64,000 nucleotides of DNA from Betaproteobacteria bacterium. Its GTDB lineage: Bacteria > Pseudomonadota > Gammaproteobacteria > Burkholderiales > Usitatibacteraceae. The notes beneath the pieces were generated by a model. The model made no database searches, was not told the origin of the DNA, and was given only the letters and a program-made list of their open reading frames with translations. Shown piece by piece: positions 4,781-34,883 of the stretch (position 1 is its first letter; each line of letters opens with the position of its first letter). Where the stretch lies: positions 459 to 64,458 of the forward strand of contig JAGRPO010000088.1 in the NCBI GenBank assembly GCA_019449455.1, given 5' to 3'. The position numbers and the translations under genes were made by a program.

Positions 4781-4892
4781 CGCACACCACTCACGAGCTG
4801 ATTCCCGTGGCGTTGATGGCAGTCAACATGGCGTCCGCCCGTTGGGATAAACATGGAACTTCAGGGCGGATCTCCAACGAAGGGAGGCTGTC

Positions 4893-21684: not shown

Positions 21685-22398
21685 CTAGCCGGTGTACGTG
21701 CGCAGGCGCTCGATGTCGGGCACCGACACCGAACGGCCTTCCATCACGATGAGGCCGGCGTCGGCCAGCTCGTGGAGGATGCGCGAGAAGTACTCCGGCG
21801 TGAGGTTCAGCCGCGAGGCCACGATCATCTTGTTGGCGGGAAGCGTCACGCTCGCCGAGCGGGCGGAGCCGTCGGAAAGCGTGTCGTCGCGCAGCAGGTA
21901 GCCGATCACGCGCTCCAGGCCCGAGCGCAGCGAATACGCCTCCACGTCACGGATGAGCTGGTGAAGCTTCCTCGACATGCCGGCCAGCAGCCGGCGGGCG
22001 AAGCGCGGGTCGCGCTCGATCTCGTCGAGGACCATGCTCTTCGAGACGTGCAGCAGCAGCGAATCCTTCAGCGTCTGCGCGGAGATGACGTAGGGCATGT
22101 CCATGAAGAGGATCGCCTCCCCGAACGAGATGCCGGGGCCCATGATCTCGATCACCTTCTCCGAGCCCTGCGGCGAGGTGACGAAGAGCTTCACCTGCCC
22201 GTAGAGGACGACGTGGAATCCCTCGCAGCGGTCGCCGCGCGAGAAGAGAGTCTCGCCCTTCATCGCGTAGATGCGGCGCGTGCCGCCCGCTATGCGCGCG
22301 ATCTCCTCGGGCGTCAGGTCGCTGAACAGCGGGAGGTTCACCAGGAACTGCTCGACCGGGATGTCCGGCCCGCGCGCGCGCGGCTCTCCGGTTTGCAT
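21685..22398 (-). CDS. Crp/Fnr family regulator, Dnr/NnrR-like (no Fe-S Cys motif)
   Basis: ORF 21685..22398. LPLFSDLTPEEIARIAGG...GISFGEAILF... is the effector barrel. The HTH is IVASRLNLTPEYFSRILHEL. It lies 11 nt upstream of the LOV kinase start and 51 nt downstream of the respiratory operon. Confidence 0.88.
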   Translation of the reverse strand: MQTGEPRARGPDIPVEQFLVNLPLFSDLTPEEIARIAGGTRRIYAMKGETLFSRGDRCEGFHVVLYGQVKLFVTSPQGSEKVIEIMGPGISFGEAILFMDMPYVISAQTLKDSLLLHVSKSMVLDEIERDPRFARRLLAGMSRKLHQLIRDVEAYSLRSGLERVIGYLLRDDTLSDGSARSASVTLPANKMIVASRLNLTPEYFSRILHELADAGLIVMEGRSVSVPDIERLRTYTG

Positions 22399-22449: not shown

Positions 22450-23265
22450 TCACGACCCGACGGAAACGCGCCCGGGAAGGCCCGGGTCGGGCCGGGGGGC
22501 GGCCCGCGAGGAGAGCGCGGCGGCGATGGCCGCGCACAGCGCCGCCGAGGAAAGCAGGTTGTGCAGCCAGCGCGCCAGCGGCCAGCCGGAAGCGGCGACG
22601 GCGGCGAGGACCTGCGCCGCGATGAGCGCGACCGCCAGGCGGGCGGCGAGGCGCGCGCCCGGCGGCGGGGAGGCGCTGAACGCCAGCAGAGCCCATCCGG
22701 CGAGGCTCGCCCACGCGAGCGCGCGGTGGACGAGGGCGAGCGACGAGGGATCGGACGGCGGCGCGGTGGCGAGCACGCCGCCCGTCACCGTGGCGAGGGC
22801 GACGAGCGCGCTTGCCGCGACGAAGGGCGTCGCGAGGCGGCCGCGGGGGGCAAGCGCGGCGACCGCGAGGCCGGCCGACAAGGCGAGGAGGGTGAGGCCT
22901 CCGAGCAGGTTGGCGAGCATCACCGCGGGAGGCGCGGCGCCCGCCGAGCGCCGGCCGATGACCGCGAGCACCGCCACCAGCACGAGGACGGCGGCGGCCG
23001 CCACGCGGCGGCCGGGGCGCGCGGGGGCCTTCCACGCGACGGCGGCGATGAGGAGCGCGAGGACGGTCACGCCCATCGCCGCGACGCGATGGGCGAGCCG
23101 CACGGCATCGGAGAGCCCGAAACCGGTGCAGCCGCCGGCGGGGCAGGGCGCGGCCGCCAGCCGCAGCCAGGCGCTGGAGGCGACGACGACGAAGACGAGG
23201 GCGGCGCACGCCGCGGCCGACGCGACGAGCGCGCGGTCGTCCCGCGCGAGGCCGGGCAGGCTCAC
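22450..23265 (-). CDS. Polytopic membrane protein, weakly COX15/CtaA-like
   Basis: GTG at 23265 overlaps the upstream stop (GTGA). CPAGGC in the first loop, and AHRVAAMG / VHRALAWA helix motifs that recall the HR motifs of haem A synthase halves. Confidence 0.5.
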   Translation of the reverse strand: MSLPGLARDDRALVASAAACAALVFVVVASSAWLRLAAAPCPAGGCTGFGLSDAVRLAHRVAAMGVTVLALLIAAVAWKAPARPGRRVAAAAVLVLVAVLAVIGRRSAGAAPPAVMLANLLGGLTLLALSAGLAVAALAPRGRLATPFVAASALVALATVTGGVLATAPPSDPSSLALVHRALAWASLAGWALLAFSASPPPGARLAARLAVALIAAQVLAAVAASGWPLARWLHNLLSSAALCAAIAAALSSRAAPRPDPGLPGRVSVGS

Positions 23266-24683
23266 CGGACCCCGGCCGGGGCCCGCTGCCGGAGCGCGCC
23301 GATCACGACGATCACGAACGCGAGGCCGCCCAGGATGGCGACGAGGCCGCCCAGGCCCATCAGCGCCATGCCGGCCACCTCCTGGGACGTGCGCAGGACC
23401 TGCGCGGCGCCCGCCACCTTGCGCTCCACGCCGTAGCCGCCGGACCAGACCAGGCCCACGATGTGCGCGAGCTGCCCGCCGCCGTAGAGCCACGGCTGCC
23501 ACGCCGCCAGGCGGGACCGCGGCGCCGCGAAGCCCAGCTGCGGCAGCAGGTGGTAGGCGAGGCCCATGAAGGCGAGCGTCACGCCGACGATGCAGCCGTG
23601 GTAGTGCGCGGGGATCTTCACGTTGGGGCCGCTGATCGCGAACCCGATGAGGCCGCCGGCCGCGAAGAGCCCGATCGAGGCGGCGAGCGCGCCGAATATC
23701 GGGCGGCTGCGCCCGTCGAGCGCCGGCAGCCCGCGCATGGCCCAGAGCAACGCGAGCAGCACGGGCGGGATGGCGAGCCCGCCGCCGAATCGCATGAGCC
23801 ACGTCTGCAGCTTGTGGTGCTCGACCGACGCCACGGGGTGCGCGATGTAGATGGCAGGCGTCACGAGCACCGAGGCGAACGCGATGGTGAAGACGAGCAG
23901 CGTCACGCGCGGCGAGAGCGCCAGGCGCAGGCCCAGCGCCGAGGCGAGCCACAGCCAGCCCCCGAGCATGAGGAGCGTCCACGTGAACTGCAGCACGTGA
24001 CCGCCGCCCCAGAACAGCAGCTCGTAGTAGGCCTTGCGCTCGAGGTGCGGGGAGACGTCGAGGTACGACCAGCCGAACGCGGCCAGCGCGACGGCGGTCG
24101 CGGCCGCCGATCCCACGATGCCCCAGCGCAGCGCGGCCTCCCCGTCGAGGACGGATCCGGAGGACCGTGCCGCCCAGAACGTGCGTGCCACGGCGGCTGC
24201 CACGCCCGCGCCGATCGCGCCGAGCCCGCCGAGGAATACGGCGTTGTCGATGACCGGGATGTAATTGGCGAGCACCGGGACCGCGTGCCCCGCGAGAGGG
24301 GCGACGCACAGGGCGAGTGTCCCGGCCGCGCACAACGCGAGCGATGTCCAGCCCAGGGCGATGGCGCGCGAATCGCAGGCGAGGCTCCAGAGGACGCCGG
24401 CGAAGGCGAGGAACCACACCAGCACCGAGAGGTCGACGTGCGCGACGAGCGCCACCTGGAAGAAGTCCGCGACGGGAAACACCTCCTTCAGTCCGGGCGT
24501 GCGCGCGAGCACCAGCAGCAGCGAGAAGATGCCGGAGCCGACGAGGGCGGCGATGCCGAGCACCAGCCAGCCCGTGGCGAGCCGCGCGGAGGCGTCGCGC
24601 GCCACCGTGATCCCGTAGGCCGTGCCCCGGCCGGAACCCGCGGAGGATGCAGTGGGGAGATGAAGGGAGGGCAGGCTAGCCAT
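23262..24683 (-). CDS. Orphan haem-copper oxidase superfamily catalytic-subunit homologue (473 aa)
   Basis: ORF 23262..24683, 12-TM pattern. All six canonical His are present: LVAHVDL (helix II), LFWGGGHVLQF (helix VI), SVEHHKLQ (helix VII), IPAHYHGCIVG (helix X). There is no Tyr at His+4. The start overlaps the upstream gene by 8 nt. Confidence 0.8.
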   Translation of the reverse strand: MASLPSLHLPTASSAGSGRGTAYGITVARDASARLATGWLVLGIAALVGSGIFSLLLVLARTPGLKEVFPVADFFQVALVAHVDLSVLVWFLAFAGVLWSLACDSRAIALGWTSLALCAAGTLALCVAPLAGHAVPVLANYIPVIDNAVFLGGLGAIGAGVAAAVARTFWAARSSGSVLDGEAALRWGIVGSAAATAVALAAFGWSYLDVSPHLERKAYYELLFWGGGHVLQFTWTLLMLGGWLWLASALGLRLALSPRVTLLVFTIAFASVLVTPAIYIAHPVASVEHHKLQTWLMRFGGGLAIPPVLLALLWAMRGLPALDGRSRPIFGALAASIGLFAAGGLIGFAISGPNVKIPAHYHGCIVGVTLAFMGLAYHLLPQLGFAAPRSRLAAWQPWLYGGGQLAHIVGLVWSGGYGVERKVAGAAQVLRTSQEVAGMALMGLGGLVAILGGLAFVIVVIGALRQRAPAGVR

Positions 24684-26265
24684 GGTGCTTCTCCTGGCGT
24701 TTGGGTGGCAGGGTGTGGCGGGCCGCGCGCGGCCCCAGGCGGGAAAGCTCGGTGCGGAACGTGTCGAGTTCGACGCGCAGCGCGTCGAGATCGGTGAGCC
24801 CGGCGTGCGCGTACCGGACGCGCTCCCGCGGCACGCTCGAGCGCAGGGAGGGCTTGCGCCCGCCGTCCAGGCGGGCCGCGACGAGCGCGTCGCCCACGCG
24901 GAACTCGCAGTCGCCCTCCCGGCATCCCGCGACGAGCACGCCGTCGGCGCCCGCGCGAAGGGCGTATTCGACGAAGGAGGGAGGCACCATCGCGGCGCAC
25001 AGGAACTCGATCGCGGCCGTGGAGTGGCCCTCGAGGGACGCGACGCCGGCGCCCCAGCGGCAGCCGAACACCACGATGCGGGGGCCGCCCTCGAGCGCCG
25101 CCGCGCGCGCCTCGAGCCGCGCGCGCAGCCCGCCGATGGTCGCCGAGGGCATGTCGATGCCCGTGGCGAGCGCCTCGTCGCGGCGGAAAGGCGTCGAGGA
25201 CGGGCAGGCGCCGGTGCAGATGCCGCATCCCGCGCAGAGGTTCGCGTCGACCTGCGCCTGCCGGAGGTGCGGCCGGGCGTCGGTGCGCGGCACCATCACC
25301 ACGGCGTCGTAGGGGCAATCGGCGAAGCAGCGCGCGCAGCCGTTGCAGTTGGCGAGGTTCACGCGGGCCACCGGCGCGCGCGGCACGCGGGTGGCGTAGG
25401 GCAGCGCGGCGAGGCCGGCGAAGAACGCGGCGGTCGCCGCCCACAGGCCCTCGGGGCCGAGCCAGGCCATGGCCGGGTGCGGAAAGAGGTAGAACCAGTC
25501 GAGCGGGATCGTCGCGGGCAGCAGGCCGAGGTCGGCGGCGGGCATGAGCGAGACGGGCTTCGCGAGCGCGAGCGCCGCGAGCATCGCGGCCGTTCCCCAG
25601 GCAAGGGCGCGCGGCGGTTGGGTGCGCGCCGGGCTCACCCGCTGCACGTGGACCCACATCGCCGCGAGCATCGCTAGCGGCAGGCCGATGTGCAGGAAGA
25701 TGAGGAGCGAGAAGAAGCGGTCGTTCACCTGGTCGCCGGCGATGACGTTGCGGGTGAGCGCCCCGTCGAAGAACGGCAGCGCGTCGAGCCATTCGGTGGT
25801 CGCGGTGAGGCTCCATTGCGCGAGCTGGTCCCAGGGGAGCCAGTAGCCGCCGATGCCGGCGGCGAACATCAGGGCGAGCGCGAAGATGCCCGTGAGCCAG
25901 GCGAATCGCCTGAACGCGGCGTAGTGGCGGCGCGAGAGCTCGCGCACGAGATGCAGCGCCGTGACCGCCACGAGGGCGTCGGCGCTGTAGCGGTGCAGGG
26001 CGCGCGCGAACGCTCCCAGCGGCCAGGCGTTCCGGTCCATCGCGGCGAGGCTCTCGCGCGCGCCGGTGGCGCTGGTGTCGAAGCCGACGTAGATCCAGAT
26101 GCCGGAGGCGCAGCAGATCCAGAAGGAGAGGAAGCCGAGGGCGCCCAGGTGCCGCCACGGGTTCAGGCGCTGGCCGAAGGCGCGGTCGAAGAGCGCGTCC
26201 AGCCGCTCGACGATCGGGGCGGCGGGACCCGGCCCGGGAAGCGCGAAGGCGGCGGAAGCGTTCAT
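24676..26265 (-). CDS. Fusion protein: dihaem cytochrome b (bc-type N-domain) + 2x[4Fe-4S] ferredoxin + MvhD/FlpD-like domain
   Basis: ATG at 26265 within ORF 24676..26574. Cyt b His pairs: ALHRY...ALHLV and FLHIGLPL...WVHVQ, plus GYWLPWDQLA. Fe-S motifs CNGCARCFADCP and CAGCGICTGACP. MvhD-like motifs VVFGCRWG...LVAGCREGDCEF. Confidence 0.8.
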   Translation of the reverse strand: MNASAAFALPGPGPAAPIVERLDALFDRAFGQRLNPWRHLGALGFLSFWICCASGIWIYVGFDTSATGARESLAAMDRNAWPLGAFARALHRYSADALVAVTALHLVRELSRRHYAAFRRFAWLTGIFALALMFAAGIGGYWLPWDQLAQWSLTATTEWLDALPFFDGALTRNVIAGDQVNDRFFSLLIFLHIGLPLAMLAAMWVHVQRVSPARTQPPRALAWGTAAMLAALALAKPVSLMPAADLGLLPATIPLDWFYLFPHPAMAWLGPEGLWAATAAFFAGLAALPYATRVPRAPVARVNLANCNGCARCFADCPYDAVVMVPRTDARPHLRQAQVDANLCAGCGICTGACPSSTPFRRDEALATGIDMPSATIGGLRARLEARAAALEGGPRIVVFGCRWGAGVASLEGHSTAAIEFLCAAMVPPSFVEYALRAGADGVLVAGCREGDCEFRVGDALVAARLDGGRKPSLRSSVPRERVRYAHAGLTDLDALRVELDTFRTELSRLGPRAARHTLPPKRQEKHHG

Positions 26266-26294: not shown

Positions 26295-26795
26295 CTAGCG
26301 GATGAGGATCCCGCCCTTGCCGGGCTCGAAGTCGATCACCAGCACGCGGCCGGGCTCGAGGCGCACCTGCTCCTCGCGCACGCGGTCGAACGTGCCCGCG
26401 GCATCGTCGGCGAGCGCCACGCGCAGCCGGTGCGTGCCGGCCGCCACGGGGATGCGCCGGTAGGCGACGGAGGCGCCGTCGCGCGAAAAGCCGGCGGGCT
26501 TCGCGACGATGTCGGCGACGGGGGCGCCGTCGAGCTCCACCTTCACGAGCACCGGGGCGCGCTCGCGGGGGCAATCCTCCGCGGCGCGCATGTTGGGGGC
26601 GAGCTTCGCGAGTTCCTCGGGCGTGCGCATGCGGCAGGCGACCTTGCGCTGTCCCGCGTGGTTGAGGGACAGGCGGATCAGCGCGTACCCCGGCGGCAGC
26701 GGCCTGAAGGCCGGCGCGGTCGAGAAGTAGCCGAGGGCGGCCGCGAAGGCGCCGTAGAGGAGGGCCTGGAGAACGTAACGGAAGGCGCGGTTCAC
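26295..26795 (-). CDS. Hypothetical single-TM protein of the operon
   Basis: GTG at 26795 overlaps the upstream stop (GTGA). N-terminal TM YVLQALLYGAFAAALGYF, then a soluble domain of about 130 aa with no motif I recognise. Confidence 0.55.
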   Translation of the reverse strand: MNRAFRYVLQALLYGAFAAALGYFSTAPAFRPLPPGYALIRLSLNHAGQRKVACRMRTPEELAKLAPNMRAAEDCPRERAPVLVKVELDGAPVADIVAKPAGFSRDGASVAYRRIPVAAGTHRLRVALADDAAGTFDRVREEQVRLEPGRVLVIDFEPGKGGILIR

Positions 26796-28729
26796 GGGCG
26801 GCCTCCCAGGCGCACGACGTCGGCGTCCCCGGCGTGGATGCGCGGCGCGAGCTTGAACGCGTCCGAGAAGCAGTCGTCGGGCGCGAGCCCCTGCTTGGCG
26901 AACGCCGGCTGCGCGGCCTCGACCATCTTCACCGAGCCGCACGCGTAGATGCGATGCCCCGCGAGGTCGGGATAGTCGGAGAGGATCGCCTCGTGGACGA
27001 GCCCGGTGCGGCCCTCCCACGCTTCCCCGGGCGCGGGGTCGGAGAGCACGGGCACGAAGCGGAAGTTCGGATGCTCCCTGGCCCAGCGCTCGGGGAGCTC
27101 GCGCAGGTACATGTCGGCGAGCGTGCGCGTGCCCCAGTAGAGCACCATGGGCCGCGTGATCCCGGCGTGGAACGCGTGCTCCACCATGCTCTTCACGGGC
27201 GCGAAGCCGGTCGCCCCCGCGACGAAGATCACGGGCTTGGCGCCGTCCTCGCGCAGGAAGAAGGAGCCCACGGGCCCCTCGAAGCGCACGCGGTCGCCGA
27301 CCTTCATGGCGGTGAAGACGTGCGTGGTGAAGCGGCCGCCCTGGATGGCCCGGATGTGCAGCTCGATGGGGCCTTGCTCGTGCGGGGCGGTGGCGAAGGA
27401 GAAGGCGCGCTTCTGGCCGTCGTCGAGGAGGATGTTGATGTACTGGCCGGCGTAGAACGGTGCCTTCCCGCCGCCCTCCACCTCGAGGCGCACGCGCATC
27501 ACGTCCTTCGCCAGGAGGTCGAGCGAGACGACGCGCGCCTCGTGCACGGCGACCGGGCGGGCCGCCTGCGCCGTGGGCTCGTACTCGATTTCCACGTCGG
27601 AGAGTGGCTTGGCCACGCAGGCGAGGACGCGCCCGGCCTCGCGGTCGGCGGCCGTGAGGGCGCTTTGCTGGTAGGCGCCCAGCGCCACCTCGCCGTGCAG
27701 CACCGTGCACTTGCACACGCCGCAGCCGCCGTTGCGGCAGTCGAAGGCCATGGGCAGGCCGTCCCTCAGGCACGCGTCGAGGAGCGACTCGTCCTCCTTC
27801 ACCGGGATGATGCGGTTGTCCGGATGGGCCAGGACATGGAAGGCGCGCAATTCGCGGCGCCCGAACTTCGGCGGCAGCCACGGCGCCATGACGGCGAGCA
27901 GCGTGAGTCCTCCCACGAGCAGCCACAGGGTGTCGGGCGACCAGCGGTAGAGCAGCGCGTAGGTCGGCATGTAGAACCAGTCGAACTCGATCGCGGCGGC
28001 CATCGTCGCGAGGTCGGCGGGCCCCTGGCTCAGGGCCGGCTTCACGACCGAGAGCACGACCATGGCCGCGCCCAGCGCGGCCATCAGCGGGTTCGGGGGC
28101 AGCGTCTTCGCCTGCGGCACGCGGTGGGTGTGGATCCACAGGAGCGCCAGCACGCCGAGCGGCAGCCCGATGTGGAGGAAGGAGAGCAGCGAGAAGAACC
28201 GGTCGTTCACGCTGTCCGCGACCAGGAAGTTGCGCATGAGCAGCCCGTTGAAGACCGGGAGCGCGTCGAACCACTCGGCGGTGGCCGTGACCGTGAACGC
28301 CGCGAGCTGGTCCCACGGCAGCATGTAGCCGTTGATGCCGGAGGCGTAGACGAGCCACAGCACGAGCACGCCGCTCACCCACGAGAACCAGCGGAACCCG
28401 CGGTGGCGGTCGAAGGCGAAGTGGCGCAGGAGGTGCAGCGCCATCGTGAGCACCATGCCGTCGGAGGCGTAGCGGTGCAGGCTTCGCATGATGCCCCCGG
28501 CCCACTTCTGCCCGTGCGTGAGCCGCTCGACCGACAGGTACGCCTCGGTGACGCTCGTGTCGAAGAAGGCGTAGAGGTAGAGCCCGCTCGCGACCACGAC
28601 CCAGAACAGCCAGTAGCTGATCGCCCCCAGGTGGTAGAGCGGGTTCAGGTGCTCGCCGAAGATCGCGTTGGCGGCCCGCTCGGCGAGAAGGAACAGGCGT
28701 TGGAGCAGTCGCTGCAGGAGCTTGAGCAT
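26792..28729 (-). CDS. Fusion protein: dihaem cytochrome b + plant-type [2Fe-2S] ferredoxin + FAD/NAD(P)H ferredoxin-reductase module
   Basis: ORF 26792..28729. Cyt b: SLHRY...ALHLL, GYMLPWDQLA, FLHIGLPL...WIHTH. [2Fe-2S]: CRNGGCGVCKC...LACVA. FNR module: RAFSFA (RxYS-type FAD site), VAGATGFAP (NAD(P)H site), YACGSVKM. Confidence 0.85.
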   Translation of the reverse strand: MLKLLQRLLQRLFLLAERAANAIFGEHLNPLYHLGAISYWLFWVVVASGLYLYAFFDTSVTEAYLSVERLTHGQKWAGGIMRSLHRYASDGMVLTMALHLLRHFAFDRHRGFRWFSWVSGVLVLWLVYASGINGYMLPWDQLAAFTVTATAEWFDALPVFNGLLMRNFLVADSVNDRFFSLLSFLHIGLPLGVLALLWIHTHRVPQAKTLPPNPLMAALGAAMVVLSVVKPALSQGPADLATMAAAIEFDWFYMPTYALLYRWSPDTLWLLVGGLTLLAVMAPWLPPKFGRRELRAFHVLAHPDNRIIPVKEDESLLDACLRDGLPMAFDCRNGGCGVCKCTVLHGEVALGAYQQSALTAADREAGRVLACVAKPLSDVEIEYEPTAQAARPVAVHEARVVSLDLLAKDVMRVRLEVEGGGKAPFYAGQYINILLDDGQKRAFSFATAPHEQGPIELHIRAIQGGRFTTHVFTAMKVGDRVRFEGPVGSFFLREDGAKPVIFVAGATGFAPVKSMVEHAFHAGITRPMVLYWGTRTLADMYLRELPERWAREHPNFRFVPVLSDPAPGEAWEGRTGLVHEAILSDYPDLAGHRIYACGSVKMVEAAQPAFAKQGLAPDDCFSDAFKLAPRIHAGDADVVRLGGRP

Positions 28730-28738
28730 GGGGGAGGT

Positions 28739-29575
28739 TCAGCCGGCGGCGCGCAGCCGGCGGCGGTGGCGTTGCCATTCGCGCAGCAGGTAGACGAGCG
28801 TGGTGAGGAGGATCGACAGGCCCGCGAGGATCTCGATCACCACGCCGTAGTCCAGGCGGTACCGGCCGGTGCGCGGATCGTAGACGGTGCACAGCAGGCG
28901 AACGCGGTCGACGATGTTGGCGAGGCTCGCCGCGGGCAGGGGCGCGTCGGTGAGGAGCGCCTTCAGCGGGCCCACGAGCATCGACATCTCGAAGTTCTCG
29001 CCGTAGACCTGCGCGGCCACGCGGCCGTTCGCGTCGAGGAGCGTCACCTGCGTGAGGTGGTCGAAGCCGCCGGCGGAGGCGGCGTAGCTGAAGCCCAGCT
29101 CGCGCGTGATCGCCTCCACCACCCCGGCCTCGGGGCTGAGGAAGTGCCAGTCGCGGCGGTCGATGCCCTGCTGGCGGGCGAAGGCGCGCATCGCCTCGGG
29201 CGTGTCGTAGGGGTAGTTGAAGCCGATGGTGGCCAGGGAGTAGCGCCCCGGGCCCAGCGCGCGGTCGGCCTCGGCGACGGCCTTGGCCAGGAAACGCGTG
29301 GTGGTGGGGCAGACCTGCGAGCAGCCGGTGTAGACGAAGCTCACCAGCACCGGCCGGCCGCGAAGCTGCGACAGGCGGAAGGGACTCCCGTCACCGGCCC
29401 GGAAGGCGTGGTCGCCCACCGGGGTGCCGATGGCGCGCTGGCTGCGGTCGAGGGCCGCGTCCGGCTCCAGGGTGGCGCCCTCGGGCGCTGCTCGCGCCTG
29501 CACAGCGCCGAGGACTGCCCCGAAGCAGAGCGCGGCCGCCGTCAGCAGCCAGCGCGGTCGGCATCCGTTGCCCAT
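28739..29575 (-). CDS. SCO1/SenC copper chaperone with an extra C-terminal TM segment
   Basis: ATG at 29575 within ORF 28739..30337. Signal/anchor, then thioredoxin-fold motif FVYTGCSQVCPTT (CxxxC) and a conserved His in GFDHLTQV. Confidence 0.88.
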   Translation of the reverse strand: MGNGCRPRWLLTAAALCFGAVLGAVQARAAPEGATLEPDAALDRSQRAIGTPVGDHAFRAGDGSPFRLSQLRGRPVLVSFVYTGCSQVCPTTTRFLAKAVAEADRALGPGRYSLATIGFNYPYDTPEAMRAFARQQGIDRRDWHFLSPEAGVVEAITRELGFSYAASAGGFDHLTQVTLLDANGRVAAQVYGENFEMSMLVGPLKALLTDAPLPAASLANIVDRVRLLCTVYDPRTGRYRLDYGVVIEILAGLSILLTTLVYLLREWQRHRRRLRAAG

Positions 29576-29580
29576 GCGGG

Positions 29581-30480
29581 CTAGCCTCGCCAGGCCGCGT
29601 CCGCGATCACGCCGATGAGAAGTAGCGAGAGCTGGGCGAGCGAGGCGTGGAAACTGCGCATCGCGGTGGCGCGCGAAGGATCCCTGGCAAGGCGGGCCGC
29701 GGCCCGCAGGAAGAGGAAGCCCCCCGCGATCGCGCCTGCGGCATAGAGCGGACCCAGGCCGAAGGCGAGCGGAAGGAACGAGGAGAAGACGAGGACGACG
29801 GTGCCGGCGAGGACCGCGCGTGCCGCGCGGGCGTCGCCGACGACGACCGGCAGCATCGGCACGCCGGCGGCCCGGTAGTCGTCGTGGTAGGCGATGGCGA
29901 GGCTCCAGAAATGCGGCGGGGTCCACAGGAACAGGACCCACGCGAGCGACGCGGCGACGGGGCCGACCTCGCCCGGCGCGACGCTCGTGGCGCCGGCGAG
30001 CACCGCGAAGCTGCCCGCGAGCCCGCCGATCACGATGTTCATCCAGGTGCGCCGCTTGAGGACGACGGTGTAGACGACGCCGTAGAAGAAGGCGCCCAGG
30101 AACACGAACAGGGCGGCCACCGGGTTCACCGCGACGGCCGTCGCGCAGACGGCGAGCGCCAGCATCAGGCCGATCACGCCCAGCCAGAACGGCCCGTGCG
30201 TGAGCCGGCCGGTGACGAACGCCCGGTGGCGCGTGCGCCCCATGCGCGCGTCGAGGTCGCGCTCGACGTACTGGTTGAACGCGCCGGCCGAAGCGGACGC
30301 GGCGATGACGCAGGCCACCAGCAGGGCGATCTGCCACGCGCCCGCCGCCTGCCGGCCGGGGACCGCGAGGGCTCCCGCGAGCGCGGTGAGCCCGATCGCG
30401 AACCCGATGCGCAGCTTGAACAGGTCGAAGAACAACCTCACCTGGTCGCGCATCGGGCCTGCATGTCCATCTTCGCTCAT
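29581..30480 (-). CDS. ctaB: Protohaem IX farnesyltransferase (haem O synthase)
   Basis: ATG at 30480 within ORF 29581..31944. NQYVERDLDARMGRTRHR (UbiA-type motif) and LFLWTPPHFWSLA. Confidence 0.9.
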   Translation of the reverse strand: MSEDGHAGPMRDQVRLFFDLFKLRIGFAIGLTALAGALAVPGRQAAGAWQIALLVACVIAASASAGAFNQYVERDLDARMGRTRHRAFVTGRLTHGPFWLGVIGLMLALAVCATAVAVNPVAALFVFLGAFFYGVVYTVVLKRRTWMNIVIGGLAGSFAVLAGATSVAPGEVGPVAASLAWVLFLWTPPHFWSLAIAYHDDYRAAGVPMLPVVVGDARAARAVLAGTVVLVFSSFLPLAFGLGPLYAAGAIAGGFLFLRAAARLARDPSRATAMRSFHASLAQLSLLLIGVIADAAWRG

Positions 30481-30506: not shown

Positions 30507-32228
30507 CTACTTGAGCGGCCAGACGGTCGACAGGTACTTCCAGTTCACGAAGTAGTAGAGGATGAACGACGTGAGGAAGATCATCGCCAGCACGAAGGTG
30601 CCCGGCGCCACGAACCCGCCGATGCCGATGGAGCCGTGGCCCGACGGGGCGGCGGCGACCGGTACCGGCGCGGGCGCCATGCCCTGGCGGACCGGGACGT
30701 GCTTGAAGTCCGGCGTCTGGATCTTCTTGCCGAAGAACACGGAGCCCACGGTGATGGCGAGGTACATCCCGCCGCCGATGACCGCGGCGATGCCCGAGAC
30801 CGCCATGATGCCCATCATGAGATAGGCGGTGCCGGGGAACTCGTGCGGCAGGATCGCGCCCGAGAACGCCATGTCCCAGTGCCGGCGCGGCACGCCCAGC
30901 GTCCCGGCGCCCATCATGAACACCGAGAAGGAGCACATGCCGAGGCCGTAGACATAGGGCTGCCACTTCGCCATGCCCGGGAACATGACCTCGCGCCGGA
31001 AGAGCGTCGGGATGAGGAAGTAGGTGAGCGCCATGAACGCGAGCGTGGTGCCCACGACGACCGTCGCGTGGAAGTGGCCGGGCACGTAGATCGTGTTGTG
31101 GATGATGAGGTTCAGCTGCTCCGTGCCCATCATCACGCCCGAGATGCCGCCCAGGAAGCCGAAGCCCACGAGCGAGATGAACATCCCCGAGAAGCTCGGG
31201 TTGCCCCAGGGGGCCTTGCGCAGCCACTCGAAGAAGCCCTTGTTGAAGCCCTTCTCGCGCTGCGCCACCTCGATCGCGCCCGGCACCGTGAGGCCGTGCA
31301 CCATGGAGGCGAGCACCGCGAGGTACATGGCGTAGCTGGTGTTGAAGATCTTCCAGTTGGAGGTGAGGCCGGGGTCGGCGAGCAGGTGGTGGGCGCTCGC
31401 GAGCTGCAGGAAGAGGATGTAGAGGACGAAGGCGGTCCGGCTCACCTTCTCGCTCATCGGCTTCGCGCCGAAGACGATGGCGGCGATCGCGTACCACACC
31501 GACACGTGGGCCGCGACGTTGATCTGCTGCGAGGAGTGCCCGAACGCCCACCAGACGGTGCGGTACATGAGGGAGTCGATGTGCGACACCAGGCCCACGG
31601 ACCAGAGGAAGGTGGGGATCAGGATGATCGCGCCCGCGGCGATGGTGAAGACGGCGATGATCGCGGCGGTGACGGCCCCGAAGGTCACCAGCGGGATCGA
31701 GCCGTTGTAGGTCTTCTCCGCCTTGCCGACGACCAGCGTGCCGAAGAACACGAAGCAGGCGACGAGCGCGCCCACGGCGAAGAGGATGAGCCCGAGGTAG
31801 AAGAGCGGGTGCGCCCCCATCGGCACGTAGGAGGTGAACATCACGCTGGAGTCGCCCTTGAACACGGCGAAGTTGTTCGTGAGCGCGCCGACGATCATGA
31901 GCCAGAAGGCGACCCAGGCCACCTTCGGCGTCGCGAGCCGGCACTTGAGGAGCGTGGAGGCGGCGAAGTAGAGCACCGCGATCTCGAAGAAGATGATCCA
32001 GAAGACGAGCATGTCCAGCCCGTGCGCGGTGAGCGCGAGGTAGAACCAGTCGGGCGGCAGCAGCTTCACGGCGGGCCAGCGCGTGAGCGTGACCAGGAGC
32101 GCGAGGACTCCGCCCACGAGGAGGGAGACCACCCCCGCGACGGCGTTCCAGCGGATGAGCTTCTCGGCCGGCTCGTGGAAGACGAGGCCGGAGGACGGGC
32201 AGGTGCGGAAATTGCGATTGACGGCCAT
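30507..32228 (-). CDS. Haem-copper oxidase subunit I, B-family-like, lacking the cross-link Tyr
   Basis: ORF 30507..32228. TAHGLDMLVFW (helix II His), WWAFGHSSQQINV (CuB His; His+4 is Gln, not Tyr), ASAHHLLADPG (HH), VPGHFHATVVVG (HxH). Confidence 0.9.
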   Translation of the reverse strand: MAVNRNFRTCPSSGLVFHEPAEKLIRWNAVAGVVSLLVGGVLALLVTLTRWPAVKLLPPDWFYLALTAHGLDMLVFWIIFFEIAVLYFAASTLLKCRLATPKVAWVAFWLMIVGALTNNFAVFKGDSSVMFTSYVPMGAHPLFYLGLILFAVGALVACFVFFGTLVVGKAEKTYNGSIPLVTFGAVTAAIIAVFTIAAGAIILIPTFLWSVGLVSHIDSLMYRTVWWAFGHSSQQINVAAHVSVWYAIAAIVFGAKPMSEKVSRTAFVLYILFLQLASAHHLLADPGLTSNWKIFNTSYAMYLAVLASMVHGLTVPGAIEVAQREKGFNKGFFEWLRKAPWGNPSFSGMFISLVGFGFLGGISGVMMGTEQLNLIIHNTIYVPGHFHATVVVGTTLAFMALTYFLIPTLFRREVMFPGMAKWQPYVYGLGMCSFSVFMMGAGTLGVPRRHWDMAFSGAILPHEFPGTAYLMMGIMAVSGIAAVIGGGMYLAITVGSVFFGKKIQTPDFKHVPVRQGMAPAPVPVAAAPSGHGSIGIGGFVAPGTFVLAMIFLTSFILYYFVNWKYLSTVWPLK

Positions 32229-32238
32229 GGCGGTCTCC

Positions 32239-32793
32239 CTACCCTTTCTTCGGCTTGACGACGTAGAGCTTGCTCGCCATCGTGTGGTGGTTGATGCCGC
32301 AGTACTCGTTGCAGATGATCGAGTACGTGCCTTCCTTCGTCGGCGTGAGCGTCACGACGTGCTCGTAGCCGGGGTGGATCTGGATGTTGATGTTCTCGGG
32401 CTGCAGCGAGAAGCCGTGCAGCCAGTCGGTCGACATGATGTGCAGGCGGTAGGTCTGCCCTTCCTCGAGCTCGAGGACGGGCCAGAACTGCCAGAGGCGG
32501 GCGACGAGATAGACGTCGCTGCCGGGCACCGGATGCACCACGGGGATGTTCTGCTCGGTGACGGTGCGCACCGTGTGCTTGTCGACCATCGCCTGCGCCT
32601 TGGCGAGGTAGGCCTCGGGCGTGGTGCGGTAGGCCTCGTTGGAGAGGTTCTGCTTACCGTAGACGTGCCAGTACGGCATCATGAAGAACATCACCATGCA
32701 CCAGACGAAGGCGATGACGATCCAGGTGCCTTCGACGCGGTCCAGGGGCTGCTTCCACCAGAGTCGTTCGGCAGGGGGTTGTATGGCGCTCAT
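32239..32793 (-). CDS. Haem-copper oxidase subunit II with an intact CuA site
   Basis: ORF 32239..32793. It has one TM and then a cupredoxin domain with DWLHGFSL and CNEYCGINHHTM (CxExCGxxHxxM). Confidence 0.85.
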   Translation of the reverse strand: MSAIQPPAERLWWKQPLDRVEGTWIVIAFVWCMVMFFMMPYWHVYGKQNLSNEAYRTTPEAYLAKAQAMVDKHTVRTVTEQNIPVVHPVPGSDVYLVARLWQFWPVLELEEGQTYRLHIMSTDWLHGFSLQPENINIQIHPGYEHVVTLTPTKEGTYSIICNEYCGINHHTMASKLYVVKPKKG

Positions 32794-32817
32794 GTCGGCC
32801 TCGCGGGGTAGGAGTTC

Positions 32818-33000
32818 TTATTTGGCGATCGGAATGCCGACGATCTCCATCACGCCCCAGACGATGTACAGGACGGTGGGCATCGCGACGCCGAGGAACA
32901 GCAGGAGGAACGGGTTGTCGATCAGCTGCTGCATCATCGGGACCGGCTCGTCGTGCATGTCGTCGTCCGCCGGGGCGGGCGAGGCGGGTACCTGACTCAT
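32818..33000 (-). CDS. Small single-TM peptide, first gene of the operon (possible subunit IIa-like accessory)
   Basis: ATG at 33000 follows AGGAGGAG. MSQVPASPAPADDDMHDEPVPMMQQLIDNPFLLLFLGVAMPTVLYIVWGVMEIVGIPIAK. Confidence 0.5.
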   Translation of the reverse strand: MSQVPASPAPADDDMHDEPVPMMQQLIDNPFLLLFLGVAMPTVLYIVWGVMEIVGIPIAK

Positions 33001-33054: not shown

Positions 33055-33096
33055 ATGCTAGGCAGCCGGCCCGGGGAAAAAATTGAACCCGTTCAA
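33055..33096 (-). promoter_or_regulatory. Candidate class II Crp/Fnr(Dnr)-dependent promoter of the respiratory operon
   Basis: Perfect palindrome TTGAAC-CC-GTTCAA (33083-33096; TTGA-N6-TCAA core). On the minus strand the -10-like TAGCAT (33060 to 33055) begins 29.5 nt from the box centre, i.e. the classical -41.5 geometry. Confidence 0.5.
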
Positions 33097-33150: not shown

Positions 33151-34221
33151 ATGGAGCCCGTGAACGCCACCATGATCGATTCGTCCCCGGCGGCCACCGC
33201 CGCGGCTGCCCCGGCCGCCGGCCGCCGCGCCGTAGCGGCCTGGCTCCTCGCCTGCTGTGCCCTCGTCTTCGCCATGGTCGTCGTGGGCGGGGCCACGCGG
33301 CTCACCCACTCCGGCCTGTCCATCGTCGAGTGGCAGCCCCTGGTGGGAGCCCTCCCGCCGCTGAACGACGCGCAATGGGCCGAGACCTTCGGGAAGTACC
33401 AGCTCACGCCCGAGTTCAGGCTGCGCAACCACGACATGGACGTCGAGGGGTTCAAGACGATCTTCTGGTGGGAGTACTTCCACCGCCTCCTCGGCCGGCT
33501 CATCGGCGTGGCGTTCCTCGTGCCGTTCCTCTATTTCTGGCTTCGCGGGCGGCTCGACCGGCCGCTCGGGTGGAAGCTCGCCGGCATCTTCGCGCTGGGC
33601 GGGCTCCAGGGCGGGATGGGCTGGTACATGGTGAAGAGCGGCCTCGTGGCCGACCCGCAGGTGAGCCAGTTCCGGCTCACGGCGCACCTGGGGCTGGCGC
33701 TCCTCATCCACGCGGCCATGTTCTGGGTGGCGCACGAGATCCTCAGGCCCGCGCCCTCGGGCGCGCCGGCGGGCCTTCGCCGCGCGGGGCTCGCCTTCGC
33801 CGCCGTCGTCTTCGCGATGGCGCTCACCGGCGGCCTGGTCGCCGGCATCCGCGCCGGCTTCGCCTACAACACCTGGCCGCTCATGAACGGCCACTGGGTG
33901 CCGCCGGAGATCCTGATGATCGAGCCGTGGTGGCGCAACTTCGGCTACAACATGGCCACGGTTCAGTTCGTGCACCGGACGCTCGCGATCGTCGTCCTGG
34001 CCGGCGCCTGTTTCCTCGCCTGGCGCGTCTTCGCCACGCGCGCGGCGGGCACGCAGGCGCGCCTGGCCGCGGGAACGCTCGCCGCGGTCACCCTGCTGCA
34101 GGTGGCGCTCGGCATCGCGACGCTGCTGATGGCGGTCCCCGTCGGCCTGGGCACCGCGCACCAGGGCGGCGCCGTGGTCGTCCTCACCGCCGCCCTCTGG
34201 CTCGCCCGGGCCCTGCGCTGA
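33151..34221 (+). CDS. ctaA: Haem A synthase (COX15/CtaA type)
   Basis: ATG at 33151 within ORF 32953..34221. GGATRLTHSGLSIVEWQP, FWWEYFHRLLGR, VQFVHRTLA and GTAHQGGA are typical COX15 motifs. Confidence 0.88.
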   Translation: MEPVNATMIDSSPAATAAAAPAAGRRAVAAWLLACCALVFAMVVVGGATRLTHSGLSIVEWQPLVGALPPLNDAQWAETFGKYQLTPEFRLRNHDMDVEGFKTIFWWEYFHRLLGRLIGVAFLVPFLYFWLRGRLDRPLGWKLAGIFALGGLQGGMGWYMVKSGLVADPQVSQFRLTAHLGLALLIHAAMFWVAHEILRPAPSGAPAGLRRAGLAFAAVVFAMALTGGLVAGIRAGFAYNTWPLMNGHWVPPEILMIEPWWRNFGYNMATVQFVHRTLAIVVLAGACFLAWRVFATRAAGTQARLAAGTLAAVTLLQVALGIATLLMAVPVGLGTAHQGGAVVVLTAALWLARALR

Positions 34222-34248: not shown

Positions 34249-34818
34249 TCAGGGCTTCAGCGGGCAGTTCTTCACGCGCGGGCAGGCTTCGTCGTGGCGG
34301 TGCGCGATCGAGATGGCGATGGCCTTCGACCGCGAGGGATCGACGGTGCCCATCAGCTCGGCGAGCTCGACGCTTTCGCGCTCGAGGTGGCGGCGCATGC
34401 GCGCGAGGAAGTCGGCCGAGGTGCCGCCGGGAAAGGCCACCAGGACGCCGCCCGCGAGGGCGAGCAGCGGGATGCGAAGCGCATGCCACAGCTCGGCCAG
34501 CTCGCGGTGCTCCACGAGGAGCGAGGAGACGAGCTCGAAGGACTGGCCGCGGTGGGCCGGCGAGTCGGAGGCGGCGAGGACCGCCGGGAAGATGTCCGTT
34601 TCCTCGTCGACCACGTGCACGTTGATCGCCTCGTCGATCTCCGCGACCAGCGCGCCGGCGCGACCGGACAGGCCGGCGGGCGGCGGGGTCGGGACGGCGG
34701 CGAGCTCGGACGCGAGCGCCTCCAGGCGATCGAGCAGCCCGGCAATGCAGCGGTGGCACTGCCCGAGCGAATCGCGCGGGGACGTAACGCCGGTCTGTTC
34801 GGACTGCGGATCTGGCAT
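34249..34818 (-). CDS. Hemerythrin-like (HHE cation-binding) domain protein
   Basis: ATG at 34818 follows GGAGGG. Spaced His/Glu motifs: CHRCIAGLLDRLE, NVHVVDEETDIFP, LVEHRELAELWH, RRHLERE. The assignment is tentative. Confidence 0.5.
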   Translation of the reverse strand: MPDPQSEQTGVTSPRDSLGQCHRCIAGLLDRLEALASELAAVPTPPPAGLSGRAGALVAEIDEAINVHVVDEETDIFPAVLAASDSPAHRGQSFELVSSLLVEHRELAELWHALRIPLLALAGGVLVAFPGGTSADFLARMRRHLERESVELAELMGTVDPSRSKAIAISIAHRHDEACPRVKNCPLKP

Positions 34819-34841
34819 CGGCCCTCCGGAAGCGAGGACCA

Positions 34842-34883
34842 AGACTACCGGGACGGGCGCCGCGGCAATTTAAAGAAGATCAA
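34842..34883 (-). promoter_or_regulatory. Weak Crp/Fnr-like half-site promoter candidate for the hemerythrin-like gene
   Basis: TTAAAGAAGATCAA (34870-34883; only the right half ATCAA is canonical). The minus-strand -10-like TAGTCT (34847 to 34842) begins 29.5 nt from the centre. It shares the TCAAGAAAA flank with the 33083 box. Confidence 0.25.

Follow-up and report, generated by a model that had tools for sequence, protein, structure and literature searches.

Does a CuA-containing, B-family-like oxidase whose catalytic subunit carries glutamine at the position of the cross-link tyrosine still reduce oxygen (O2), or does it reduce nitric oxide (NO)? The question is raised by a locus in a 64,000-nucleotide (nt) stretch from a Betaproteobacteria bacterium (assembly GCA_019449455.1, contig JAGRPO010000088.1, positions 459 to 64,458; hereafter the window), in which three adjacent genes on the minus strand encode a ba3-like core.

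32818-33000, minus strand: small protein of 60 amino acids (aa) with a single transmembrane helix; ATG start after an AGGAGG ribosome-binding site.
32239-32793, minus strand: eNOR subunit II, one N-terminal membrane helix and a cupredoxin domain (PF00116, 30.1 bits; TIGR02866).
30507-32228, minus strand: eNOR subunit I, the catalytic subunit, 573 aa (Pfam COX1, 225.6 bits), with six histidine ligands and GHSSQQIN in helix VI.

This three-gene core combines a complete CuA site, two haem sites, a three-histidine metal site, glutamine in place of tyrosine, and polar residues like those of the K-channel. We conclude that the stretch very probably carries the core genes of a nitric oxide reductase of the eNOR family, the activity being predicted from the enzyme of Rhodothermus marinus at 44% identity. 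Judged by its sequence, the operon is a typical eNOR operon that is mislabelled in databases, and the enzyme type has already been described.

The closest solved structures for subunit I are those of B-family oxidases (Aquifex 7DEG, E-value 2.8e-52; Thermus ba3, E-value ~1e-46). In an alignment of subunit I with Thermus ba3 and 65 further sequences, residues H69, H231, H280, H281, H385 and H387 correspond to H72, H233, H282, H283, H384 and H386 of the Thermus thermophilus ba3 oxidase, respectively, and all six are invariant across the eNOR clade. Helix VI reads WWAFGHSSQQINV (residues 226-238), in which V236 and Y237 of ba3 are replaced by Q234 and Q235. Specifically, Q235 occupies the column of the cross-link tyrosine, and the ba3-type GHPxVY motif gives way to GHSSQQ. 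An earlier note on this DNA had claimed that subunit I keeps the six histidine ligands and that glutamine at His+3 and His+4 removes the cross-link tyrosine; the alignment bears out both statements. Additionally, S308, Y246 and T314 align with S309, Y248 and T315 of ba3, whereas T312 of ba3 is replaced by an invariant H311; S308 is likewise invariant in the eNOR clade. The window enzyme thus shares with the oxidases of T. thermophilus (ba3; 1EHK/1XME) and Aquifex aeolicus (7DEG) the six histidines, a CuA-bearing subunit II and a single-helix gene before subunit II, and it keeps the K-channel residues S309, Y248 and T315 of ba3. It differs from ba3 in the replacements of Y237 by Q, V236 by Q, W239 by N (N237), T312 by H and Y244 by V, in its placement in a separate clade, and in its predicted substrate, which is NO rather than O2.

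The glutamine pair is not confined to the window protein. Related-locus scans were seeded on exact 8-mers, with the best 80 loci retained per scan, and three such scans of species-representative genomes yielded 227 subunit-I homologues from Burkholderiales, Myxococcota, Rhodothermales, Balneolaceae, Planctomycetota, Verrucomicrobiota, Leptospiraceae and other groups, every one of which (227/227) carries GH-x-[SAT]-Q-Q-[IV]-N. Cultured carriers of the enzyme include Usitatibacter palustris (82% identical), Noviherbaspirillum sp. ST 5-3 and Piscinibacter caeni MQ-18. Subunit II of the window contains a complete CuA pattern, H-X34-CNEYCGINHHTM (H-X34-C-X3-C-X3-H-X2-M), in agreement with the complete CuA site that the earlier note had read from the translation. 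The same pattern is kept in 218 of 222 subunit II orthologues; three of the others represent a contig-end cut or a spurious match, and one is too short to score. Taken together, the conservation of both features argues for a family signature under selection rather than for chance or a decaying oxidase. Other positions of subunit I are also invariant and specific to the eNOR clade, namely E82, S133, Y222, N237 and H311, as well as the motif W-K-x-[FW]-N-T-S-Y-x-x-Y at the start of helix VIII (residues 296-302; window ~31325-31345, minus strand).

The identity of the residue at the tyrosine position separates the families of NO reductases related to haem-copper oxidases, being Q in eNOR, N in sNOR and Bacillus CuANOR (bNOR), D in gNOR, and E in cNOR and qNOR (Table A4, PMC8756737). 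A search of 201 genomes from the order to which a Rhodothermales locus belongs, followed by an exact look-up of the translated proteins, identified ACY47069.1/WP_012842681.1 of R. marinus DSM 4252 and WP_072715415.1 of R. profundi, the latter of which is listed among eNOR sequences (PMC8756737). Along its entire length, window subunit I shares 44% identity with both ACY47069.1 (E-value 3e-158) and WP_072715415.1 (E-value 2e-161). The R. marinus eNOR reduces NO but not O2 with a range of donors, contains haem As in both haem sites and has a CuA subunit (Murali et al. 2024, PMC11214002), and we take ACY47069.1 to be the purified enzyme because it is the sole eNOR-like gene found in that genome. 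The R. marinus DSM 4252 and window enzymes share the GHxSQQIN, AHHLLADPG, WK-x-[FW]-NTSY and VPGHFH motifs, the CuA subunit, and the gene order small-helix protein, subunit II, subunit I; the window protein differs in belonging to a separate proteobacterial sub-branch.

A maximum-likelihood tree of 70 rows was built by a quick search (IQ-TREE, LG+C20+F+G4), with the Shimodaira-Hasegawa-like approximate likelihood-ratio test (SH-aLRT) as its sole measure of support in place of a full bootstrap. This tree, which holds no named sNOR, bNOR, gNOR or nNOR sequences, places all 39 Gln-Gln sequences in one clade with an SH-aLRT of 99. This clade contains the window protein, both Rhodothermus proteins, Salinibacter and the haloarchaeon Natrarchaeobius. 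Seventeen Tyr-bearing B-family sequences, including Thermus ba3, are separate, with an SH-aLRT of 88 for the B clade and of 97 for the split in another tree. The earlier note had proposed a CuA-containing, B-family-derived enzyme of a proposed NO-reductase family, and both the diagnostic glutamine and the well-supported eNOR clade agree with this. The attachment of three other groups to the eNOR clade is poorly resolved; these are an archaeal GHxxQY group, the clade of a divergent paralogue described below, and an HxxHY group. The archaeal GHxxQY proteins, from Thermoproteota and Hodarchaeales, share Q234, N237, H311 and E82 with eNOR and keep the cross-link tyrosine. They are probably the K family of O2 reductases, a family that clusters with eNOR (FIND preprint, 10.1101/592808).

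The earlier note had left the choice between sNOR and eNOR relatives open, and the enzyme could in principle be an sNOR of the norSY type, as in ammonia oxidisers. The norSY-senC-orf1 systems (Stein et al. 2007, Hemp and Gennis 2008) are indeed B-family-related, carry a CuA subunit, have lost the tyrosine and contain senC in the cluster, and in the window, too, senC follows. However, Q235 stands where sNOR has its diagnostic asparagine (Table A4, PMC8756737), and the window protein clusters with named eNOR sequences. The proton channel points the same way: eNOR keeps a B-family-like K-channel including the S309 equivalent, here S308, whereas sNOR lacks that equivalent and has a different channel with a conserved glutamate elsewhere (PMC11214002). 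Additionally, no Asn-type sequence was present among 27 full-length sequences aligned from the best 150 cluster representatives. The sNOR assignment is rejected on three counts, namely the diagnostic residue, the equivalent of S309 and the position in the tree, and we accord it next to no probability. Of the kinship proposed earlier, the eNOR half therefore stands, on the glutamine, S308 and the tree, and the sNOR half falls with the asparagine; of the likeness to norSY-senC-orf1, the senC gene holds, but the rest of the order does not, the full order being that of the Ferrigenium straubiae eNOR operon considered below. Six weak Burkholderiales matches (25-30% identity), fetched as possible sNOR, comprise four Tyr-bearing B-type oxidases and two proteins of an FHNMHY type, and no SenC neighbour was detected at the two FHNMHY-type loci. 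These FHNMHY homologues, from two Burkholderiales genomes, have tyrosine in the columns of the ba3 ligands H282 and H384 and a cupredoxin gene upstream.

Could the enzyme nevertheless still reduce O2, for example as a slow or high-affinity oxidase in which Y299, Y302 or Y270 serves as electron or proton donor instead of the cross-linked tyrosine? Its descent from B-family oxidases, the tyrosine kept by its nearest outgroup (the archaeal GHxxQY clade), a dependence on O2-requiring haem A synthesis, and the presence of clade-specific invariant tyrosines would all be compatible with such a role. Most clade-conserved tyrosines of subunit I are, however, common to B-type oxidases. Y270 is shared by the eNOR clade and its Tyr-bearing archaeal sister clade and is therefore not a replacement, which leaves Y222, Y299 and Y302 as eNOR-specific tyrosines. 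Y299 and Y302 belong to the invariant motif that opens helix VIII, a region approximately level with the CuB histidines, as known from A-family oxidases. Since the R. marinus enzyme has the same two tyrosines and yet fails to reduce O2 with any of a range of donors (PMC11214002), they are unlikely to compensate functionally. Models and sequences likewise give no evidence of a conserved tyrosine moved to another position (PMC11214002). The earlier note had itself set a compensating active-site tyrosine and clustering with bona fide B-type oxygen reductases against its proposal; the window protein stands apart from the Tyr-bearing B-type oxidases, and its translation has no tyrosine at the cbb3-type helix VII position, where HH-6 is leucine (LFLQLASAHH). 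Moreover, the genome already has an aa3 and two cbb3 oxidases. Taken together, we consider O2 reduction very unlikely, and NO reduction by an eNOR remains the preferred reading.

The 60-aa gene directly ahead of subunit II may add a further element to this eNOR. The earlier note read the two subunits of this region correctly and left out this gene. It is conserved in 76 of 80 Burkholderiales-type loci and in 88 of 145 loci of the other clade, and R. marinus DSM 4252 also has a small-helix gene before subunit II (40% identity over 40 aa). The protein has no Pfam match, and its gene is placed like cbaD, which encodes subunit IIa, in the Thermus ba3 operon. Its conservation across the eNOR clade together with this cbaD-like position suggests that eNOR may have an unreported third subunit, for which the 60-aa protein is a candidate. 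A further CuA-like cupredoxin domain is encoded elsewhere in the genome, in a 256-aa open frame (C322:1679-1888) apart from the subunit II genes of aa3 and eNOR.

Three genes close to the core bear on its cofactors.

29581-30480, minus strand: ctaB/cyoE, haem O synthase (TIGR01473, 244.9 bits, cut-off 210.3).
28739-29575, minus strand: SCO1/SenC copper chaperone, membrane anchored (PF02630, 42.2 bits).
33151-34221, plus strand: ctaA/COX15, haem A synthase, divergent from the operon (PF02628, 367 bits).

These TIGR01473, PF02630 and PF02628 matches confirm the order subunit II, subunit I, ctaB, senC and the dedicated haem O/A synthase genes given in the earlier note. SenC is found in 67 of 80 related loci and ctaA is adjacent in 36 of the 80; many eNOR operons carry ctaA (PMC11214002). 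With ctaB in the operon and ctaA beside it, the window enzyme probably contains a-type haem. Next to ctaA lies a gene for a hemerythrin-domain protein (34249-34842, minus strand), which is conserved only in the two closest relatives and could have an O2- or NO-binding or an iron-repair role.

The core and the ctaB and senC genes belong to one tightly packed run on the minus strand, from 33000 to 22450, in which several start and stop codons overlap. Beyond senC, the run continues as follows.

26792-28729, minus strand: dihaem cytochrome b (bc1/b6-type N-terminal domain) fused to a [2Fe-2S] ferredoxin and an FAD/NAD(P)H reductase (PF00033, PF00111, PF00970, PF00175).
26295-26795, minus strand: N-terminally membrane-anchored protein, 166 aa, an open reading frame between the two cytochrome b fusions.
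24676-26265, minus strand: dihaem cytochrome b fused to 2x[4Fe-4S] and an MvhD/FlpD-like domain (PF00033, Fer4 families, PF02662).
23262-24683, minus strand: very divergent subunit-I paralogue, 473 aa (PF00115, 56.1 bits); its start overlaps the preceding stop.
22450-23265, minus strand: polytopic membrane protein, 271 aa; its start overlaps the stop of the paralogue.

These accessory genes were checked for presence, domains and synteny. In each of the two bacterial clades, most loci show synteny of eNOR with the cytochrome b fusions, the paralogue, SenC and ctaB. Specifically, the fusion with the [2Fe-2S] and FAD/NAD(P)H domains is syntenic in 57 of 80 loci, and that with the 2x[4Fe-4S] and MvhD-like domains in 59 of 80 and 132 of 145 loci. 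The two fusions are paralogous dihaem cytochromes b. Neither the 166-aa anchored protein nor the 271-aa membrane protein is recognised by Pfam, the latter giving only a non-significant COX15 match (E-value 0.75). The 473-aa paralogue, which has no PDB or NCBIfam match, keeps both haem-ligand histidines and the helix VI histidine; the helix VII His-His pair is not aligned, and the HH in its VEHHKLQ is not conserved among relatives. In trees it forms its own clade near eNOR, and it is syntenic with eNOR in many phyla.

The full gene order finds its counterpart in the eNOR operon of F. straubiae KS, which is described as eNOR II, eNOR I, haem O synthase, sco1, cytochrome b-FeS-FAD-NADH, cytochrome b-FeS and an 'eNOR scaffold protein', and whose products appear in the proteome under denitrifying conditions (bioRxiv 10.64898/2026.01.22.701106). 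Compared by description rather than by sequence, this gene list and order equal those of the window, with the 473-aa paralogue corresponding to the 'eNOR scaffold protein' in the naming of that preprint; the window adds the adjoining ctaA, the 60-aa small-helix gene, the 166-aa anchored protein and the 271-aa membrane protein. A haemoprotein of Magnetospirillum magnetotacticum MS-1 reportedly contains haem a, has no cytochrome c oxidase activity and is encoded by genes for subunit II and subunit I ahead of one for haem O synthase (Tanimura and Fukumori 2000). This 'cytochrome a1-like' haemoprotein has since been assigned to eNOR (PMC11214002).

The tight synteny across phyla of eNOR, the two cytochrome b fusions and the paralogue, along with the overlapping start and stop codons, raises the possibility that the enzyme acts on another small molecule or serves mainly as one part of a larger redox assembly that includes the cytochrome b fusions, in NAD(P)H-linked NO reduction or in NO-driven reverse flow to NAD+. 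A supercomplex, speculatively a quinol:NAD+ oxidoreductase, has been proposed by the authors of the F. straubiae preprint (10.64898/2026.01.22.701106). Yet the R. marinus enzyme is a stand-alone NO reductase whose locus lacks these genes, and we regard this alternative as improbable. A broader proposal, which we offer tentatively and hold to be rather doubtful, is that outside Rhodothermus eNOR forms in most bacteria the terminal module of a dedicated complex of ~10 genes. The cytochrome b fusions would then move electrons across the membrane to or from CuA, either as a NOX-like NAD(P)H:NO oxidoreduction that bypasses bc1 or as NO-driven reverse flow to NAD+, and the paralogue would be a haem-handling or scaffold subunit.

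Several observations weigh against assigning the window enzyme as an eNOR-type NO reductase. The characterised enzyme is only 44% identical to the window protein. The two clade-specific invariant tyrosines Y299 and Y302 lie roughly level with the metal site. Haem A synthesis requires O2, which fits poorly with strictly anoxic denitrification. Finally, the R. marinus DSM 4252 locus consists of the three core genes alone, with ctaB, senC, the cytochrome b fusions and the paralogue absent within ~8 kilobases (kb), so the eNOR label does not explain why the accessory genes are present here.

Expression of the eNOR operon appears to be tied to a regulator of the Crp/Fnr family, as indicated by two features at its opposite ends.

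33083-33096: FNR/Dnr/NnrR-type palindrome TTGAACGGGTTCAA (TTGA-N6-TCAA), upstream of the operon.
21685-22398, minus strand: Crp/Fnr-family regulator, Dnr/NnrR-like (PF00027, PF13545), at the far end of the operon.

TTGA-N6-TCAA occurs at two sites in the 64-kb window against 0.10 expected; the other site is TTGATGGCAGTCAA at 4813-4826. A TAGCAT -10 element on the minus strand (33055-33060) has its 5' end 29.5 nt away from the centre of the upstream palindrome, a spacing that suggests the geometry of a class II FNR-type promoter with the box at -41.5. The same box is found upstream in 52 of 69 Burkholderiales-type orthologous loci, against 0 of 69 control stretches, and is absent from the other clade. 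With a single cysteine, the regulator lacks the N-terminal cysteine cluster of FNR, and together with its E-x-x-S-R recognition helix this points to the Dnr/NnrR type. For ctaA, a reading of the sequence by eye showed no convincing plus-strand -10 element downstream of the box that it shares with the operon.

The genome, which is 99% complete, contains five COX1-family genes, namely those of an aa3 oxidase (GHPEVY), two cbb3 oxidases, eNOR and the divergent paralogue. Since its haem-copper enzymes comprise only these, the COX1-family inventory includes no cNOR or qNOR. The cd1 nitrite reductase gene nirS is present (495.6 bits), whereas no nirK over the cut-off, no narG and no nosZ of either clade were found; napA was not searched. 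The case for the window eNOR thereby parallels that of R. marinus, an NO producer without a canonical NO reductase.

The following scheme builds on what was observed here, namely the sequence features, the membership of the family, the genomic context and the gene inventory of the genome; the activity (extrapolated from the 44% identical R. marinus enzyme), haem type, metal identity, proton uptake and regulation in it are predicted. A periplasmic donor, either a cytochrome c or a cupredoxin, would reduce CuA of subunit II, from which electrons would pass to the low-spin haem (H69/H387) and then to the binuclear site, formed by the high-spin haem (H385) and a non-haem metal on H231, H280 and H281. 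At the binuclear site, two NO molecules would be converted to nitrous oxide (N2O) and water. NO reduction takes two electrons and proceeds without a His-Tyr radical cofactor, which is why Q235 can sit in the place of the tyrosine. Cytoplasmic protons can be taken up along a K-channel-like path (Y246, S308, H311 and T314), which may make the enzyme electrogenic and energy-conserving. CtaB and CtaA would provide the a-type haem and SenC the copper for CuA; because haem synthesis by CtaB and CtaA needs some O2, the process would be micro-oxic denitrification. Expression is probably turned on by the Dnr/NnrR-type regulator via the -41.5 box at low oxygen or with NO, and in this genome the enzyme would remove the NO made by NirS.

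Since the enzyme type is known, our finding mainly corrects an annotation. For the organism, the gene set looks like that of a truncated denitrifier ending at N2O, and the combination of nirS and eNOR in the absence of narG and nosZ makes it a probable N2O producer. Orthologues with at least 63% identity are present in ~38 of 301 sampled genomes of the order, a frequency consistent with the claim that the contribution of eNOR to N2O from soils and sediments is large and under-counted.

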